Of a stretch of DNA of 64,000 bases, positions 14,987 through 31,192 are shown piece after piece. The stretch is taken from the NCBI GenBank assembly GCA_902526175.1, contig CABZJY010000004.1, forward strand, positions 64,174 to 128,173, written 5' to 3'. Positions within the stretch are counted from its first letter, which is position 1. Each line of letters starts with the position of its first letter. The position numbers were made by a program, and so were the translations under genes. The notes under the pieces are model-generated. The model ran no database searches and had not been told where the DNA came from. It saw only the letters and a list, made by a program, of their open reading frames with translations. This DNA comes from an uncultured Alphaproteobacteria bacterium. GTDB lineage: Bacteria > Pseudomonadota > Alphaproteobacteria > Methylaequorales > Methylaequoraceae.

Positions 14987-15790
14987 TTATTGACAAGGTT
15001 CAATAAATACTTTCGATTCTAACGATTCGTTACCATTATAATTTAGTTTTATACCTTTAATAATTGAAGCATCTAAAAAATCAAAACCAGAATTAATTCT
15101 TATATATTTATCATCAACACATTTTTTGTGAGATGGGTCAAAACCTACCCATCCAACTTCTTTAAGAAATAACTCTCCCCATGCATGTGTAGCATTTTCT
15201 GAAGCATTTAAATCATCATACAAGAAACCATTAACATATCTCGCTGGAATATCACAATACCTTGCAGCAGATATCAATATATGAGCATAATCCTGACAAA
15301 CACCCTCTCCTTGCTCTATTGCTTCTCTTGAACTAGTTGATGTTGAAGTTGACCCACTAACATATTTGATTGAGTTAGATACACTAAGATTTAATTCATG
15401 AGCAAATTCAATTAAGTTTCTTTTTTTAATTTTTTTTGTTAAATTTTCTATCATCTTACATGGAAGTGTTAAGTTTGTATTTCTTAAAAAACATAAAGGA
15501 TTAACCTTTTCTGACAAACCCTTCATTATACCTGAAAGGTCTTTTGTCTTAACAATTCCTTTAGACGTAATTTCTAATTCTCCGCTAAAATTTTTATTAT
15601 AAATATTAAGTATTTTATGACCTAATCCATCAATATGCGATTCAACAATTTTACCACTATTACAATTAATTTCCCATTCCATAATTTTTTGATTTTCGCA
15701 CTGTGTGGGATATAACTTTACACACTGAATCAATTTCGGAACCTCTGTACTATATTTATATAATGTTTTGTGATTTACTTTTATTATCAC
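14987..15790 (-). CDS. transglutaminase-like cysteine peptidase-fold protein
   Basis: Putative Cys-His-Asp triad context: GVCQDYAH .. ATHAWGE .. GFDPSH. The start overlaps the alpha-E gene stop by 4 nt. Confidence 0.85.
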   Translation of the reverse strand: MIIKVNHKTLYKYSTEVPKLIQCVKLYPTQCENQKIMEWEINCNSGKIVESHIDGLGHKILNIYNKNFSGELEITSKGIVKTKDLSGIMKGLSEKVNPLCFLRNTNLTLPCKMIENLTKKIKKRNLIEFAHELNLSVSNSIKYVSGSTSTSTSSREAIEQGEGVCQDYAHILISAARYCDIPARYVNGFLYDDLNASENATHAWGELFLKEVGWVGFDPSHKKCVDDKYIRINSGFDFLDASIIKGIKLNYNGNESLESKVFIEPCQ

Positions 15791-16749: not shown

Positions 16750-18156
16750 TTACTCATTTATTACCCAAGTATCCTTTACTCCACCACCTTGTGAAGAATT
16801 TACAACTAATGATCCTTTTTTTAAAGCTACTCTTGTTAACCCACCACTTACTAACTTTGTTTTCTTAGCGCCAACTAAGCAAAATGGTCTTAGGTCAACA
16901 TGGCGAGGGGATAATTCCTTTTTTGAAAAAATTGGTACTGATGATAAATCAAGAATTGGCTGAGCAATATAATTACTTGGGTTAGCTTCAATTTTTTTCT
17001 TAAAAACTTCAATCTCCTTTTTTGATGATTTACTACCTATTAGTAATCCATAGCCTCCTGATCCATGAACCTCTTTTACAACTAATTTATGTAAATTATT
17101 TAATACATATTTCTTTTCATCAGCTTTAAAACATCTCCATGTTTTAACATTATCTAAAATAGCTTCTTCACCTAAGTAAAACTTAATTATTTCGTGCATA
17201 TATGCATAAATAGCCTTATCATCAGCCACACCGGCTCCAGGAGCAGAACAAATGTTTAGATTACCGGATTTATATGAATCAAATAATCCAGGCACACCTA
17301 TTAAAGAAGTACTATCAAATGATATAGGATCAATAAAATTATCATCAATTCTTCTGTAAATAATATCTACTTTTTCTGGACCTTTTGTTGTTTTCATATA
17401 TGTAATATTTTCATCAACATATAAATCTGGACCTTGAACAAGCTCAACACCCATAAGATCAGCTAAAAAACTATGTTCATAATAAGCACTATTAAAAGAA
17501 CCTGGAGTTAGAATTACAATCTTAGGTTCATTTTCGCACTTAAGAGGTGTTAATGTTTTTAAAATTTCAAGTAAATAAGTTGGATAGTTTTCAACTGTTT
17601 CAATTTTGAGTTTTTCGAATAATTCTGGAAACATTCTCATCATAATTTCTCTGTTCTCAATCATATAGGATACCCCAGATGGTGTCCTACAATTATCTTC
17701 TAAGATTTTAAAACTTTTATCGTTTATCCTAATAATGTCTGATCCAATAATTGGACTATAAATATTTTTGGGCACTTTAAAACCAACCATTTTAATTTCG
17801 TAAGCTGGATTTTTAAATATTAAGTCCTCAGGAATAATTCCTGCCTTAACAATTTCTGCAGTGTTATATATATCGTTCAAAAAAGCATTAATTGCTAGTG
17901 CTCTTTGAATTACACCCTTTTCAATAGTTTTCCATTCCGATGATGATAAAATTCTTGGGAACATATCGAAAGGTATTAGTCTCTCGGTAGAGTCAAAATT
18001 ATTATATACTGAAAAAGTAATGCCTATTCTCTTAAATAAGCTCTCTGCCTCATTTTTTTTTTTTACAATGACATTCTCAGGAAGTGATTTGGCCCAATCA
18101 ATAATTTGATTGTAAGGTTTTCTAACCTTAGAATTTTTATAAACTTCATTAAACAA
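16750..18156 (-). CDS. circularly permuted ATP-grasp (type 2) amidoligase-family protein
   Basis: 468 aa of the family usually found with alpha-E and transglutaminase partners. The only in-frame start after the upstream TGA is TTG at 18156. Confidence 0.8.
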   Translation of the reverse strand: MFNEVYKNSKVRKPYNQIIDWAKSLPENVIVKKKNEAESLFKRIGITFSVYNNFDSTERLIPFDMFPRILSSSEWKTIEKGVIQRALAINAFLNDIYNTAEIVKAGIIPEDLIFKNPAYEIKMVGFKVPKNIYSPIIGSDIIRINDKSFKILEDNCRTPSGVSYMIENREIMMRMFPELFEKLKIETVENYPTYLLEILKTLTPLKCENEPKIVILTPGSFNSAYYEHSFLADLMGVELVQGPDLYVDENITYMKTTKGPEKVDIIYRRIDDNFIDPISFDSTSLIGVPGLFDSYKSGNLNICSAPGAGVADDKAIYAYMHEIIKFYLGEEAILDNVKTWRCFKADEKKYVLNNLHKLVVKEVHGSGGYGLLIGSKSSKKEIEVFKKKIEANPSNYIAQPILDLSSVPIFSKKELSPRHVDLRPFCLVGAKKTKLVSGGLTRVALKKGSLVVNSSQGGGVKDTWVINE

Positions 18157-18194
18157 TTTTTTATACTCATATCAGAAGAGGGAGAGAGACTTAG

Positions 18195-18245
18195 AATGCG
18201 TTCCTTCGGTGTCTAACCTACTTCCGACCATAAGGTTGAACGTTT
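18195..18245 (-). promoter_or_regulatory. glutamine riboswitch (glnA RNA motif) candidate
   Basis: Minus-strand RNA: AAACGUUCAACCUUAUGGUCGGAAGUAGGUUAGACACCGAAGGAACGCAUU. P1 is CGUUC/GAACG, and there is a hairpin ACC-UUAU-GGU. The signature strings CGGAAGUAGG and ACCGAAGGAACGC are recalled from memory of the published consensus. It forms a GC-rich island in an AT-rich spacer. Confidence 0.75.
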
Positions 18246-18250
18246 TATAA

Positions 18251-18279
18251 AGCTTATTATTAAAATAATTAAAAATCAA
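18251..18279 (-). promoter_or_regulatory. candidate sigma70 promoter for the riboswitch transcript
   Basis: Minus strand TTGATT-N17-TAAGCT. The predicted start falls at the base of riboswitch P1. The -10 element is weak. Confidence 0.3.
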
Positions 18280-18306: not shown

Positions 18307-20034
18307 TTAAAATTTTTTATTTGTTAACCAAATACTCTGATAAGGTAATAAAGTAAAATCTCCAGATATATCTTTGACAGTTTTTTTACTTAAAATATCA
18401 TACCAACTGTTTGTTGCAATTAAGTTAATTTCAAGCAATGAAATTTTTTTCTTTTTTTTTGATAGATTACTAATACAGAAAATACTTTGGCTTCTATCCA
18501 AACTTTGTCTCCATATACCGAACAAATATATTGGGAGTTGTAATGTGAACTGTGTAGCATTAGGGTGAAAAGCAGGCTGTTTTTGTCTTAATAATATTAA
18601 TTTTGTAATTGAAGAGTAGACTTTACTATTAAGAGAATTTTTTTTTTCTAGAAGCCTTTTAATTTCCTCGAAATTCCAATTTCGTCTATTAATTGATCTA
18701 TTCGATTTAGTAAGTTTGAATTTTACGATATCATTTTTAGAACCTAATAAATTTTGAATATAAATTGCTGGAATTCCTTCCATTGAAAGTAATATTTCAT
18801 GAGCTAATAAAAAACGTTTTATATTGAAGTTATCTTTTCCTGAATACGTATTTTTTAAAGCATCTAATAATGTAGTATTGACCTCATATACGGTCTTTTT
18901 CTTTTGTGATATTCTGTATGTCAGATGTGCCCCAGAATTTTGTAAAGTACTTATAAATTTTTCTAATTCATTATTAGGTAAAATACCCTCTAATGGACGT
19001 AAGCCTATTCCATCATGTGTTGATAAAAAATTAAGATATGAATTACCAAATTGTGCTGGTGGCATACTTCTAGACCATTGCTTTAAATAAGTACTATTGC
19101 CAGATATAACTGCATGAACTAATAAGGGTGCTAAAGAAAAATTATATATACAATGCGCTTCGTTATTATTCCCAAAATAACTCAAATTTTCATGGCTTGG
19201 TATATTTGTTTCAGTTATGATTAGACAATTACCTGAATAAAACTCAACTAAAAGTCTTATAAGTCTTATTATTAGATGGGTTTCTGGTAGATTAATACAT
19301 TTTGTATCTTCTTCCTTCCAAAGAAAGGCCACAGCATCTAATCTTAAAGCTTTTGTACCTTTATCAAGATATAATTTAATAACTTCCAAAAAATAAATTA
19401 AGACTTTTGGATTCTTAAAATTAAAGTCTACTTGGTCATGACTAAATGTACACCATACAAATTCATTTTTACCGTCTACCTTTACCTTCTTTGATAACTC
19501 AGATGAGCGAGGTCTTACTACTTTTGAAAATCTACTGAAGTTTTTCTTACTTGAAATAAAAAAATCTGACCCAGGTTCAGTTTTATTTAAAAAATTTTTA
19601 AAAAGTTGATTTTCAGTTGAGCAATGATTGATCACCAAATCACTCATAATTTTAAATTTTGATGATAACTTTGAAAAATCATTCCAATTTCCATGTTCTT
19701 TTTTAATTTTTTTATAATCTTTAACAGCAAATCCATCGTCAGAAGTATATGGATAAAACGGCAGAATATGAATAAATGAAAAATTTTTACAAAATTTATT
19801 TAGAAAACTATTTAGTATCTTAAAATTATTTTGTTTTTGATCAATGATTGAATCTGCATAAGTAATTAAAAAACAGTCTTTTTCATCCCATAGTTCTTTA
19901 CTTACCTTTTTATTAGAATACCTTGAGAAAATTTTTTTTATTTCACCAGATAAAGTCTTTATCTCTTTTTGACTATAATTTTTGTATATTGAGCTAAGAT
20001 AATTTTGTAAGGTTTTTAAATTTAATTGATTCAT
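18307..20034 (-). CDS. GH13 sucrose-phosphorylase-like glycoside phosphorylase (candidate glucosylglycerate phosphorylase)
   Basis: 575 aa with FLITYADSI, ILPFYPYTSDDGFAVKDY, DLVINH and LRLDAVAFLWKE (nucleophile Asp region). The substrate is guessed from the gene neighbourhood. Confidence 0.7.
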   Translation of the reverse strand: MNQLNLKTLQNYLSSIYKNYSQKEIKTLSGEIKKIFSRYSNKKVSKELWDEKDCFLITYADSIIDQKQNNFKILNSFLNKFCKNFSFIHILPFYPYTSDDGFAVKDYKKIKKEHGNWNDFSKLSSKFKIMSDLVINHCSTENQLFKNFLNKTEPGSDFFISSKKNFSRFSKVVRPRSSELSKKVKVDGKNEFVWCTFSHDQVDFNFKNPKVLIYFLEVIKLYLDKGTKALRLDAVAFLWKEEDTKCINLPETHLIIRLIRLLVEFYSGNCLIITETNIPSHENLSYFGNNNEAHCIYNFSLAPLLVHAVISGNSTYLKQWSRSMPPAQFGNSYLNFLSTHDGIGLRPLEGILPNNELEKFISTLQNSGAHLTYRISQKKKTVYEVNTTLLDALKNTYSGKDNFNIKRFLLAHEILLSMEGIPAIYIQNLLGSKNDIVKFKLTKSNRSINRRNWNFEEIKRLLEKKNSLNSKVYSSITKLILLRQKQPAFHPNATQFTLQLPIYLFGIWRQSLDRSQSIFCISNLSKKKKKISLLEINLIATNSWYDILSKKTVKDISGDFTLLPYQSIWLTNKKF

Positions 20035-20042
20035 TGAAAAAA

Positions 20043-21257
20043 TTAAGCCTCATTATCTTTTTTAACGGTTTGTTTTAAATCTTCTAAAAAATTTGGCAAG
20101 GCTGTATCTACCCTACTCCATGTTGGTATATTCGGTGACTCCATAGGTGAATCTAAAAATGTTTGGCCCGCTATCATAATATTTTTAGCAAACAATTCAA
20201 CTGCTGTTTCCTCTTCATGTACATCAATTTCAAAGTTATTCATTAATGCGTCTTTTTTATAAATTTGAACAAAATCAAGTGCTTCCCTGTAATATGTTGC
20301 TTTAAGTGATCTAAAAATTGACATTGAAAAAGTCTCACCTTGAGAGGCTAACTTTCTTATAATTGCCTTAATGATGTCAATTGACATTTTTGAAAGACCC
20401 TTTGAAGTATTTGTCAATGAGATATCCTGGTGTTTATGATCATAGTTATCAGCTATATCAACTTGGCATAATCTGTTACCGGCATAGTTTCTATACATTT
20501 CTGAAAGAACTCCAATTTCTAAACCCCAATCATACGGTATTCTTATATCTTTCAACACTCTCCTTCTAAAAGAAAACTCACCGGCTAATGGATACCTAAA
20601 AGAATCGATAAAAGAAATATATTCTTTAAAACCAATAGTTTTTTCTAATGCTCTTAAAATTGGGGTAACTAGAAGTCTTGCAACTCTTCCTCTAACTTTT
20701 GTTTTTGAAACTCTAGGATAATAACCTTTGCAAAAATCAAAATTAAATTTTGGATTTGCTACTGGATAAACTAGTCTAGCAAGAAGATTTTTATTGTAAG
20801 TAATTATATCACAGTCATGTAATGCTATTGCTTCTGAATCACCAAGAGAAAGAATATAACCCATACAATACCAAACATTTCTACCCTTACCCATTTCTTG
20901 CGGGGCTAAGTTTTGCGACTCCAATTGCGAATTTAGTTTTTTTAGTCCTGGTCCGTCATTCCATAGTATTTCATGTTTTTGTGGAAGTTTAGAGAAAAAT
21001 TCCTTTGCATTTATAAATTCTTTTTTATTTGCTTGATCTAAACCAATAACAATATTCTTTAAAAATTTTACTTTAGATATTTCATCTATAATTTTTGGAA
21101 GAGCATTACCTTTAAGTTCAGTATACAAGGAGGGCAAAATTAAAGTAATAGGTCTATATTTACAAAAATCTACTAATTCCTTTTCTAAATCTTCAAAAGA
21201 TCTATTAGAAAAATTATGTAATGTAGCAACAATACCATTTTGATAGAAATCAGAAAT
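20043..21257 (-). CDS. gpgS: glucosyl-3-phosphoglycerate synthase-like GT-A glycosyltransferase (GpgS/MpgS family), proposed ATT start
   Basis: GT-A core with GKGRNVW .. ALHDCDI. The frame is open 43 codons upstream of the ORF-track TTG (21137) with no ATG/GTG/TTG. ATT at 21257-21255 lies 6 nt after AAGGAG (21269-21264). Confidence 0.65.
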   Translation of the reverse strand: MSDFYQNGIVATLHNFSNRSFEDLEKELVDFCKYRPITLILPSLYTELKGNALPKIIDEISKVKFLKNIVIGLDQANKKEFINAKEFFSKLPQKHEILWNDGPGLKKLNSQLESQNLAPQEMGKGRNVWYCMGYILSLGDSEAIALHDCDIITYNKNLLARLVYPVANPKFNFDFCKGYYPRVSKTKVRGRVARLLVTPILRALEKTIGFKEYISFIDSFRYPLAGEFSFRRRVLKDIRIPYDWGLEIGVLSEMYRNYAGNRLCQVDIADNYDHKHQDISLTNTSKGLSKMSIDIIKAIIRKLASQGETFSMSIFRSLKATYYREALDFVQIYKKDALMNNFEIDVHEEETAVELFAKNIMIAGQTFLDSPMESPNIPTWSRVDTALPNFLEDLKQTVKKDNEA

Positions 21258-22071
21258 ATTTTTCTCCTTTCAAAATATTTTCTATTGACTCTTTCCAACC
21301 TTCAGGAGCTGGTAATTTACTTCTAAAAATATTTTTATTTTTTAACGTTAAGTTTGTATTCTTTTTAGATTTTATGATACATGCGTAATCTGTAAGTTCA
21401 AGCATAGGGATATCATTTTCGCTATCACCAAGTGAAATCGATAAATAACGAGAGTCTATTATGTTTTTAATTTTAAAAAACTTTTTTAGTGCTACACCTT
21501 TGTTGTAATTATCTAAGATGTGTAAAAACCTCCCACCATCTAAAACTTCAAGTTTTTTATTTTGCTTTTTGACTTCATTAATAAACTCACTTCTTTTTTT
21601 TTCAGTATCTTCCCAATAGATTGGGTTAGAAAACTTTCTTAATTTACTCAAACTTATATCACTATCTTTAAGATTGGTAATTTTACCAATTTTTTTATTT
21701 GATAAATTATCGTAAAAACTAAATTTATATTTATTTTTTAAAAAGTTAAATTTTTCCTTAATTTTATTTGAATCAAATCTAGTTAATGGAAAACCAATAT
21801 GATTTTTATATTTAATAAATTTATACATCATTTCTTTTCCTTCAAAATATTTTAATGGAAAAAAAATACATGCTCCGTTTTCTGCAATAAATGGGAAATT
21901 AATATTTAAGTATTTATTGATTTGAGTTATTTCTTCATAGGTTTTACTTGAAACAAATATAATCTCAAAACTTGTGTCTAACTTGTTAATAAATTTCTTT
22001 AAAGTTCCAAATGAGTATGTTTTACGGTTTAAAAAAGTTCCATCCAAGTCTGAAAAAATTAAAAACTTCAT
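21250..22071 (-). CDS. HAD-IIB phosphatase, mannosyl/glucosyl-3-phosphoglycerate phosphatase family
   Basis: The DLDGTF nucleophile motif and GDSENDIPML motif are present. 273 aa, the size of YedP/MpgP-type enzymes. Confidence 0.75.
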   Translation of the reverse strand: MKFLIFSDLDGTFLNRKTYSFGTLKKFINKLDTSFEIIFVSSKTYEEITQINKYLNINFPFIAENGACIFFPLKYFEGKEMMYKFIKYKNHIGFPLTRFDSNKIKEKFNFLKNKYKFSFYDNLSNKKIGKITNLKDSDISLSKLRKFSNPIYWEDTEKKRSEFINEVKKQNKKLEVLDGGRFLHILDNYNKGVALKKFFKIKNIIDSRYLSISLGDSENDIPMLELTDYACIIKSKKNTNLTLKNKNIFRSKLPAPEGWKESIENILKGEKYF

Positions 22072-26152: not shown

Positions 26153-26230
26153 TGGGGTGGCTGAGGGGATTTGAACCCCCGGCCTCCGGTACCACAAACC
26201 AGCGCTCTAACCAACTGAGCTACAGCCACC
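26153..26230 (-). tRNA. tRNA-His (anticodon GTG)
   Basis: Hand-folded cloverleaf. Acceptor GTGGCTG/CAGCCAC with an extra G-1 opposite C73, anticodon loop TTGTGGT, T-loop TTCAAAT, encoded CCA. Confidence 0.9.
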
Positions 26231-31104: not shown

Positions 31105-31192
31105 TGGTGCGGTCGAGAAGACTTGAACTTCCACGAGATATTATCTCACAACGACCTCAACGTTGCGCGTCTACCAATTCCGCCACGACCGC
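31105..31192 (-). tRNA. tRNA-Leu (anticodon GAG), long variable arm
   Basis: Hand-folded. Acceptor GCGGTCG/CGACCGC, anticodon stem CAACG/CGTTG with loop TTGAGGT, T-arm GGAAG-TTCAAGT-CTTCT, encoded CCA. Confidence 0.9.

Follow-up and report, generated by a model that had tools for sequence, protein, structure and literature searches.

A glutamine-I riboswitch aptamer in the leader of an ATP-grasp/Alpha-E/transglutaminase operon from a putative SAR11-type alphaproteobacterium, and its leader family predicted to act as a glutamine-OFF switch

Results

The aptamer and the operon it precedes

The 64,000-nt stretch analysed here (contig CABZJY010000004.1, positions 64,174 to 128,173; its full length is referred to as the window) is an ordinary chromosome segment with a G+C content of ~28-33%. 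Its minus strand carries an operon for a circularly permuted ATP-grasp protein, an Alpha-E domain protein and a transglutaminase-like protein, and the spacer in front of the first gene contains an element that the original prediction, made from the sequence without database searches, had taken for a glutamine riboswitch of the glnA-motif class. In the direction of transcription, the locus is composed as follows (MFE, minimum free energy):

18274-18279 (-): -35-like hexamer TTGATT, supported by cross-locus conservation of CTTGATTT
18251-18256 (-): -10-like hexamer TAAGCT after a 17-nt spacer; orthologues have TAAYCT inside TATAAYCTT
18195-18244 (-): glutamine-I (glnA RNA, RF01739) aptamer, from the Rfam covariance model, stem covariation and orthologous leaders
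18242-18238 with 18203-18199 (-): aptamer stem P1, CGUUC:GAACG
18236-18227 (-): aptamer P2 hairpin, ACC-UUAU-GGU
18226-18219 (-): aptamer core strand CGGAAGUA
18218-18208 (-): aptamer P3 hairpin, GGU-UAGAC-ACC, absent from the original prediction
18207-18204 (-): aptamer GAAG
18198 (-): aptamer C after P1
18171-18196 (-): platform (anti-aptamer) segment including a 16-nt pyrimidine run, from MFE folds and duplex energy
18154-18170 (-): A/U-rich ribosome-binding region and TTG start (18156-18154)
16750-18156 (-): first gene, circularly permuted ATP-grasp type 2 (CP_ATPgrasp_2), 468 aa; PF14403, E = 2.3e-152, and PF04174
15787-16746 (-): Alpha-E domain gene, 319 aa; PF04168, E = 3.1e-81
14987-15790 (-): last gene, transglutaminase-like (Transglut_core), 267 aa; PF01841 and PF08379

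The Rfam covariance model RF01739 matches the minus strand at 18244-18195 with 58.3 bits, compared to a gathering score of 35 (E = 2.8e-10). The alignment spans model positions 1-53 untruncated, and all upper-case consensus positions are identical. Conversely, the Downstream-peptide (glutamine-II, RF01704) model, the second of the two for which a run had been proposed, gave no match at its gathering score anywhere in the 64-kb window, where the Rfam scan matched only two tRNAs besides the glutamine aptamer. All three stems are present in the window copy, P1 enclosing P2 and P3; P1 and P2, as well as the core strings CGGAAGUAGG and ACCGAAGGAACGC, lie on the minus strand with the sequences and coordinates first assigned to them. 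The core strands CGGAAGUAGG and GAAGGAACGC, with the C that follows P1, are intact in the window and invariant in 45 of 45 unique leaders of orthologous operons. The predicted GC-rich island was likewise recovered, the aptamer having 46% G+C against ~28% in its surroundings.

The search for conservation and covariation that the original prediction had called for yielded the element in 58 orthologous loci and covariation of both P2 and P3 over 178 unique aptamers. Pairs 1-3 of P2 are canonical in 99-100% of these, with the first pair occurring as A-U (87), U-A (69), G-C (12) and C-G (9), and the third pair of P3 occurs as C-G (70) or U-A (65). P1 could not vary in this set, as the search patterns fixed its sequence. 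Judged from these comparisons, the window element is a genuine glutamine-I (glnA-motif) riboswitch aptamer and a plain member of RF01739, for which binding of glutamine is predicted.

The three operon genes were identified by Pfam in the order that had been claimed. The same order, ATP-grasp, Alpha-E, transglutaminase-like, is repeated in assemblies of relatives, and an identical Alpha-E protein with conserved synteny occurs in at least four contigs from four samples, including the TARA contig MDTE01141373.1. No Anbu peptidase gene follows the transglutaminase gene; the operon ends at 14987, and the adjoining open reading frames (ORFs) are on the plus strand, the first encoding a 92-aa protein without a Pfam family and the next AcrB. 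For the ATP-grasp protein, the nearest genomic relatives (82-86% identity) come from single-cell genomes and metagenome-assembled genomes (MAGs) labelled Pelagibacteraceae, Rickettsiales or uncultured Alphaproteobacteria. This agrees with the alphaproteobacterial origin first proposed and, by the record titles of these relatives, the host is probably a SAR11-type alphaproteobacterium.

Promoter and leader layout

A block CTTGATTT...TATAAYCTT is found at a constant distance from P1 in 51 unique upstream sequences, and the window hexamers are its local version, the -10 element retaining the T-A-n-n-n-T pattern. The TTGATT-N17-TAAYCT block is thus a candidate leader promoter, from which transcription would start 1-4 nt before P1. 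The weak promoter of the original prediction holds in this comparative sense, but it was not called by a generic sigma-70 consensus scan of the window. A scan for intrinsic terminators returned none on the minus strand; the 'terminator' called at 18225-18238 (+) is the reverse complement of the P2 hairpin plus a T-rich run, and hence an artefact of the aptamer on the opposite strand. The 150-nt spacer had also been described as the only sizeable one of the minus-strand gene block. It is the largest, but a second of 112 nt lies at 21138-21249.

The TTG at 18156 aligns with the ATG of the orthologues and opens a 468-codon ORF, and the same 468-aa product is predicted by gene callers in other assemblies. 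The sole triplet resembling a Shine-Dalgarno (SD) sequence before this start is GAG at 18168-18166, in line with the TTG start and poor SD noted originally. An out-of-frame 35-codon ORF (18063-18170, minus strand) has its AUG at 18170, 3 nt past the pyrimidine tract, and crosses the TTG start; it may interfere with initiation or mean nothing. A small upstream ORF at the recurrent AUGAGU motif of the leaders was considered and rejected, since its frames and stops are inconsistent among leaders; the 3' arm of an ACUC:GAGU helix is the better explanation of the motif.

Conservation and gene contexts of the aptamer subtype

In SAR11-type genomes and marine metagenomes, 58 loci with 45 unique leaders have the aptamer upstream of the ATP-grasp/Alpha-E/transglutaminase operon, where it ends 3-50 nt before the ATP-grasp start. 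All 12 close loci of the genome collection have the aptamer core 45-70 nt before this start, and the aptamer is found also in a more distant MAG (locus L023; loci are numbered with the prefix L), whose ATP-grasp protein is 68% identical. Beyond the promoter the sequences are unrelated among loci, with an opposite-strand tRNA in several and an amylase-family gene in the window. Since the leader is conserved while the upstream sequence is unrelated, the element accompanies the ATP-grasp operon.

A complete metagenome scan for the aptamer subtype CGTTCAACC-N3-8-GGTCGGAAGTAGG gave 110 loci. The ATP-grasp gene follows the aptamer in 43 of 103 parsed copies, and four further copies are truncated leaders of the same type. 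The same subtype precedes genes for glutamine synthetase and the Amt transporter, both confirmed by Pfam, and representative aptamers from each gene context score 54-65 bits with Rfam, all above the threshold. The leaders of glutamine synthetase genes (glnA leaders) often contain tandem aptamers; their platform, of ~85 nt, has the conserved motif UUUCAUAACUAGAGCAUGA.

Among the individual contexts, glutamine synthetase I genes on low-G+C marine contigs stand behind this subtype at L209:1568-1696 and also at L208, L230, L239, L244, L249, L262, L281, L291 and L307. Tandem aptamers precede a protein of 126 aa whose N-terminus (MEVYMKKLYLITFLL...) resembles a signal peptide and which has no Pfam family at L203:241-412, a context seen also at L222, L223, L261, L269, L272, L280 and L284. 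Single aptamers are followed by a protein of ~385 aa, again with a signal-peptide-like N-terminus and no Pfam family, at L267:5076-5127, L308:1721-1772 and L270:844-894; this may be the 'porin' reported beside a glutamine riboswitch in a Pelagibacter MAG (PMC12379486). In L252 and L285 the P1 5' strand, CGUUCA, is repeated directly 3' of the aptamer (GAACG-CGUUCAUUGGUC...), where it might compete as a decoy for pairing with the 3' strand of P1 or be left over from a second aptamer.

Viral contigs contain at least 120 copies of the glutamine-I core (L081-L200), an abundance that contrasts with the description of riboswitches as rare in phages (PMC5473149). All viral-contig copies among the matches listed have a short ON-type platform. 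They precede ~65-aa peptides (MTKRFTHLFK...NGTSGY...) or DUF4278-like peptides of the form M..YRGV.Y.

Expression platform of the ATP-grasp leaders

Downstream of P1 the ATP-grasp leaders read CAUCC-N-UCUGUCUCUUUC-CYACU(U)CCGA, followed by a purine-rich SD and AUG. The segment CYACU-CCGA with its flanks could pair with the invariant aptamer strand UCGGAAGUAGG or, in one lineage, with the P3 strand and loop instead, and the pyrimidines just 5' of this segment, plus CAUC, have complementarity to the SD and the start codon. The anti-aptamer and anti-SD helices cross in topology and therefore cannot both form in a nested fold. P1 is missing from the free-state MFE fold of 41 of 44 leaders, and in 36 of 44 the platform is paired with the invariant strand, the aptamer:tract duplex having a mean of -17.6 kcal/mol (z = -1.7 relative to composition-matched shuffles), which supports the suggestion of the original prediction that the tract is an aptamer-pairing expression platform. 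With the aptamer locked, most platforms fold into one hairpin whose 3' arm is the SD and AUG. These sequestering hairpins are lineage-specific, with arms UCUCUUUC/GAAAGAGA, CCUCUAU/AUAGAGG, UUGUCU/AGACAA, UACUC/GAGUA or CAUC/GAUG, and the tract:SD duplex has a mean of -9.3 kcal/mol (z = -1.5 relative to composition-matched shuffles). Cognate duplex partners outdo swapped ones, with 0 of 5000 permutations reaching the observed value; it must be added, as a point against the interpretation that follows, that the shuffle and swap statistics overstate independence because the leaders are phylogenetically related. The aptamer:platform pairing is the best-conserved feature of the platform across leaders.

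A platform is missing altogether from two minimal leaders, L210 and L225 (~70-76% protein identity). Their start codon stands 3 nt after the aptamer, the leaders read GAAGGAACGCAAAUG, and the sequence runs ...CCGAAGGAACGCAAAUG. Their sole SD, GAAGGA, 7 nt before the AUG, is the invariant 3' strand of the aptamer. As the SD is inside the aptamer, a folded, ligand-stabilized aptamer can only occlude it.

Predicted sign of the regulation

The sign of the response was modelled by comparing two ensembles, one unconstrained and one with the aptamer locked (P1, P2 and P3 enforced, the other aptamer nucleotides unavailable). The measure was the energy required to open the ribosome-binding site (RBS, positions -13 to +3), for which locking gave the following changes:

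ATP-grasp leaders (n = 45 unique): mean +4.4 kcal/mol, harder to open in 39; predicted OFF
ATP-grasp leaders with +33 nt of coding context (n = 43): harder to open in 35; predicted OFF
Phage-type short leaders (n = 87 unique): mean -2.7 kcal/mol, easier in 83, harder in 0; predicted ON
glnA leaders with the same aptamer subtype (n = 10): +0.2 to +4.3 kcal/mol, positive in 10 of 10; predicted OFF

The method separates the platform types, as the phage-type result fits the published ON model and repression of glnA by glutamine is expected physiologically. In typical leaders the energy gap between the two conformers has a median of 6.3 kcal/mol (interquartile range 5.2-8.4), and a gap this small is, within the limits of such models, what a ligand-tipped switch requires. 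The leader-family switch thus most likely turns translation OFF at high glutamine, where we infer ligand binding, the sign and translation as the controlled step from the models and the comparison of leaders.

Both experimentally characterized types of glutamine riboswitch are ON switches (PMC6212724, PMC6698751), and the possibility that the leader acts in the same direction as that of cyanobacterial gifB, with binding either freeing the RBS or exposing the tract for ribosomal protein S1, takes support from this precedent, which likewise counts against an OFF switch. We nevertheless consider a glutamine-ON switch improbable. The opposite sign is predicted for 39 of 45 orthologous leaders by a method that recovers the ON-type platforms of phages, and the minimal leaders have their SD within the aptamer. 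Moreover, the short helix between post-P1 nucleotides and the RBS that is the cyanobacterial ON feature is not conserved in ATP-grasp leaders. A helix of this kind, between nucleotides 3' of P1 and the SD, was rejected as the main mechanism: CAUC:GAUG is possible in some leaders, with no covariation, and it is absent in the window.

Sigma-54-type promoters of orthologues and a proposed nitrogen physiology of the operon

Orthologous operons that lack the aptamer (L315-L330, from an abundant group with ~75% identity, on contigs of ~1.1 Mb) have TGGCAT-ATAAT-TTGCA or TGGCAT-ATTTT-TTGCA in 16 of 16 loci read. This sigma-54-type -24/-12 element is located at 1455-1475, ~40 nt before the ATG, and the leaders of these loci gave no match with Rfam. 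Six further aptamer-less loci from at least two other lineages have similar sigma-54-type sites, against a background of 0.008 per 250 nt, located ~118 nt upstream of the start in L022 and L058 and ~26 nt upstream in L013-L015 and L017. In the gammaproteobacterial single-amplified genomes the site is so near the ATG that the mRNA would have almost no leader. Sigma-54 together with NtrC is the classic nitrogen-limitation system. Induction of the Anbu-type operon by nitrogen limitation in Pseudomonas putida is reported in two papers, both citing Hervas 2008 (PMC6376114, PMC5666114). Both the orthologues' sigma-54 promoters and the reported induction in Pseudomonas argue against a glutamine-ON switch.

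The sigma-54 sites, the Pseudomonas induction and the glnA and amt targets of the same aptamer subtype would all fit expression at low glutamine, i.e. an OFF switch. The operon's link to nitrogen is indirect, by analogy with these same orthologues, Pseudomonas and the genes sharing the subtype.

The window leader as an atypical copy

The all-pyrimidine run UCUCUCUCCCUCUUCU occupies exactly 18189-18174 on the minus strand, as originally described. In the free state of the window leader the platform pairs with the aptamer at 18228-18205, GUCGGAAG (18228-18221) pairing with CUUCUGAU (18178-18171) and further pairs extending to 18196. The anti-aptamer duplex amounts to -16.3 kcal/mol, with 9 of the 12 invariant-strand nucleotides paired with the platform. 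In these respects the window copy resembles its family.

In others it does not, and these count against a glutamine-OFF switch. The region before the start reads AUGAGUAUAAAAAA, followed by UUG, and has no 3' arm of a sequestering hairpin; sequestration of the SD was sought with +12, +33 and +36 nt of coding context and not found. On locking, the energy needed for opening shifts by -1.6 or -1.3 kcal/mol; for the tract:SD duplex a value of -2.6 kcal/mol (z = +0.9) was obtained, and for the platform fold in the locked state one of -1.3 kcal/mol. The leaders L009, L306 and L020 behave in the same way. In addition, the evidence on sign, for the family as well, consists entirely of nearest-neighbour secondary-structure models, which ignore the tertiary E-loop/pseudoknot, the ligand energy and co-transcriptional folding, and the sigma-54 sites of the orthologues are pattern matches whose nitrogen dependence is assumed. 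The main weaknesses are accordingly a sign derived from modelling and comparative inference, and an atypical window copy.

What does change on locking is the tract: the fraction of it that is unpaired is 0.35 in the free state and 0.67 in the locked state, with RBS accessibility nearly unchanged. For a glutamine-ON switch, both this exposure and the slightly lowered RBS opening energy would count in favour. Pyrimidine-rich tracts before start codons can boost initiation through S1, which would add to that side. However, the effect in the window is small and, once more context is included, has the opposite sign for positions -14 to -1.

The same exposure is the only predicted state difference in the window leader, and in the window-type variants (window/L207, L009/L306 and L020) the glutamine-exposed C/U-rich tract could instead be a Rho loading or decay entry site, by which the operon would be attenuated and still be OFF. 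Riboswitches that gate Rho access are known, as is (UC)n as an artificial rut site. The pure pyrimidine run of 16 nt, a 41-nt platform with 9 C and 4 G in a genome of ~28% G+C, and the lack of an intrinsic terminator on the minus strand are all consistent with such a mechanism, which we still regard as unlikely: a rut site would normally be longer than this tract, pairing with the G-rich aptamer strand suffices to explain the C content, no C-richness is seen in the downstream coding sequence, and most leaders have a simpler mechanism.

Finally, the window aptamer may be a decaying or largely non-regulating relic, in which the anti-aptamer conformer dominates and expression from the TTG is weak and constitutive. 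The gap between locked and free ensembles, ~13-14 kcal/mol in the window compared to the family median of 6.3, points in this direction, as do the absent SD-sequestering arm and a TTG start with no SD. Still, all conserved aptamer positions are intact, with a score equal to that of typical copies, and the leader occurs in at least three independent assemblies: the L207 leader is identical from the aptamer to start codon +12 (L207 and L312 being the same TARA contig), and the 150-nt spacer is shared by this contig and by L311, whose aptamer match likewise scores 58.3 bits. The anti-aptamer complementarity has been kept despite sequence change, which argues for continued selection. Because the aptamer is intact and this complementarity maintained, we give little credence to the relic.

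The window switch may thus be weakened, kinetically controlled, or using the exposed (UC)n tract otherwise. As orthology and physiology favour OFF, an OFF effect (kinetic or via the exposed tract, e.g. Rho access) would rank first for this copy, followed by a weakened switch and, last, an ON effect.

Further features of the window

The alpha-amylase-family gene that lies upstream on the same strand ends at 18307. It belongs to a set at 18307-22071 (-) that encodes an alpha-amylase-family protein (575 aa), a 364-aa protein without a Pfam family and a HAD/sucrose-6F-phosphate-phosphohydrolase-like protein; this set may be a sugar or compatible-solute module, and the neighbourhood is not kept in relatives. 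The tRNA genes are located at 26156-26229 (-) and 31108-31192 (-), the second with a long variable arm. Judged from ORF sizes and positions alone (two ORFs of ~1,390 aa followed by ORFs of 692 and 396 aa and a series of small ones), the region at 36-63 kb resembles an rpoB/rpoC, EF-G/EF-Tu and ribosomal-protein cluster.

Discussion

In combination, these analyses lead us to favour, as probable though well short of certain, the view that a genuine glutamine-I riboswitch with its own promoter forms the operon leader and is, at the level of the leader family, a glutamine-OFF translational switch. In the absence of ligand, the platform segment (CYACU-CCGA and flanking pyrimidines) would pair with UCGGAAGUAGG, P1 would unfold, and the SD and start codon would be open. 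With glutamine bound, the aptamer would retain UCGGAAGUAGG, and the freed pyrimidine segment would fold onto the SD and AUG as a hairpin. In the two platform-less lineages the SD is the 3' strand of the aptamer, and the same OFF logic would operate via direct occlusion. A glutamine-OFF switch would have the operon expressed under nitrogen limitation, as sigma-54 promoters would do for the aptamer-less orthologous operons, and the widespread ATP-grasp/Alpha-E/transglutaminase system would gain a concrete physiological cue, predicted to be low glutamine.

SAR11 genomes are without glnB (PII), glnD, glnK and ntrBC (PMC3870248), and since Smith et al. 2013 (PMC3870248) it has been asked how SAR11 cells sense nitrogen without PII, GlnD and NtrBC. 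The present locus joins this question with that of the identity and sign of the marine glnA RNAs, a large share of which, among those from metagenomes, can be assigned to SAR11-type genomes. A wider and more tentative proposal, to which we attach somewhat less than even confidence, is that SAR11-type bacteria sense nitrogen directly via a regulon of OFF-type glutamine-I riboswitches, controlling glnA, amt, secreted or porin-like proteins and most often the triad, with the RNA standing in, one for one, for the sigma-54 promoter that other marine lineages have at the orthologous operon. One operon alternates here between a sigma-54 promoter and a riboswitch among lineages. If the proposal is true, an uncharacterized amidoligase triad would belong, as a core module, to the nitrogen-starvation response of the most abundant heterotrophs in the ocean.

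The aptamer class is known; what is new is the gene association, the host group, the platform logic and the predicted regulatory sign, OFF in a class known only as ON. A literature search for glutamine riboswitches with SAR11 or Pelagibacter returned passing mentions only, namely of RF01739 hits in pelagiphages, SAR86 and one Pelagibacter MAG (PMC9004378, PMC12379486), and a search of the recent literature for the function of the triad gave nothing relevant. A published map of transcription start sites from the Red Sea (PMC5069720) likewise contains no data for the element. The text of Weinberg 2010 and the part of its glnA alignment that was covered contain neither these leaders nor DUF404, DUF407 or COG2308. 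No earlier report of the operon association was found, within a coverage that takes in the early glnA-motif literature only in part.

Comparison with known systems

Compared with the glutamine-I riboswitch in the 5' untranslated region (UTR) of Synechocystis gifB (PMC6212724; discovery of the class, PMC2864571), the window element has the same three stems, the same core nucleotides, a 5' UTR location and a putative nitrogen-related context. The two differ in host, a cyanobacterium versus a probable SAR11-type alphaproteobacterium, and in target, gifB/DUF4278 in cyanobacteria versus the ATP-grasp/Alpha-E/transglutaminase operon. P2 is shortened to 3 bp in the window, and the aptamer is single whereas many copies of the class are tandem. 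The platform of the ATP-grasp leaders is ~20 nt longer than the gifB type, has anti-aptamer and anti-SD segments and is predicted to be OFF, not ON.

The glutamine riboswitches of phages and cyanophages (L081-L200) belong to the same class, and some copies to the same CGUUCAACC...GGUCGG subtype; such riboswitches have been described for Pelagibacter phage Mosig and OM43 phage Melnitz (PMC9004378). In the viral platforms, however, CACCU, CAUCU or CACUUUAC after P1 is complementary to a strong SD (GGAGGGUG, GGAGAUG or GUAAAGGAG), and the two sides covary. Such a post-P1:SD arrangement is the ON type proposed for cyanobacterial gifB (PMC6212724).

Another related group is formed by the glnA RNAs that precede glutamine synthetase in marine metagenomes; in 2018, when genomic copies were known only in cyanobacteria, their host and sign were called unknown (PMC6212724). 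They share the subtype and the low-G+C contigs, and both are predicted to be OFF. They are unlike the window leader in their tandem aptamers, in the ~85-nt platform with its motif and in the downstream gene.

The minimal leaders L210 and L225, with GAAGGA in the 3' strand of the aptamer, resemble SAM-II and preQ1-II, although fold and ligand differ; the window leader itself is unlike this minimal type. SAM-II and preQ1-II are translational OFF riboswitches with the SD inside the aptamer.

With regard to the operon, the nearest system is the Anbu-type operon of Pseudomonas putida, of the Anbu-type amidoligase system reportedly described by Iyer et al. in 2009. The first three genes are orthologous, and expression at scarce nitrogen is proposed for both. 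The window operon lacks the Anbu gene, and its control is proposed to run through a glutamine-sensing RNA rather than a protein cascade.

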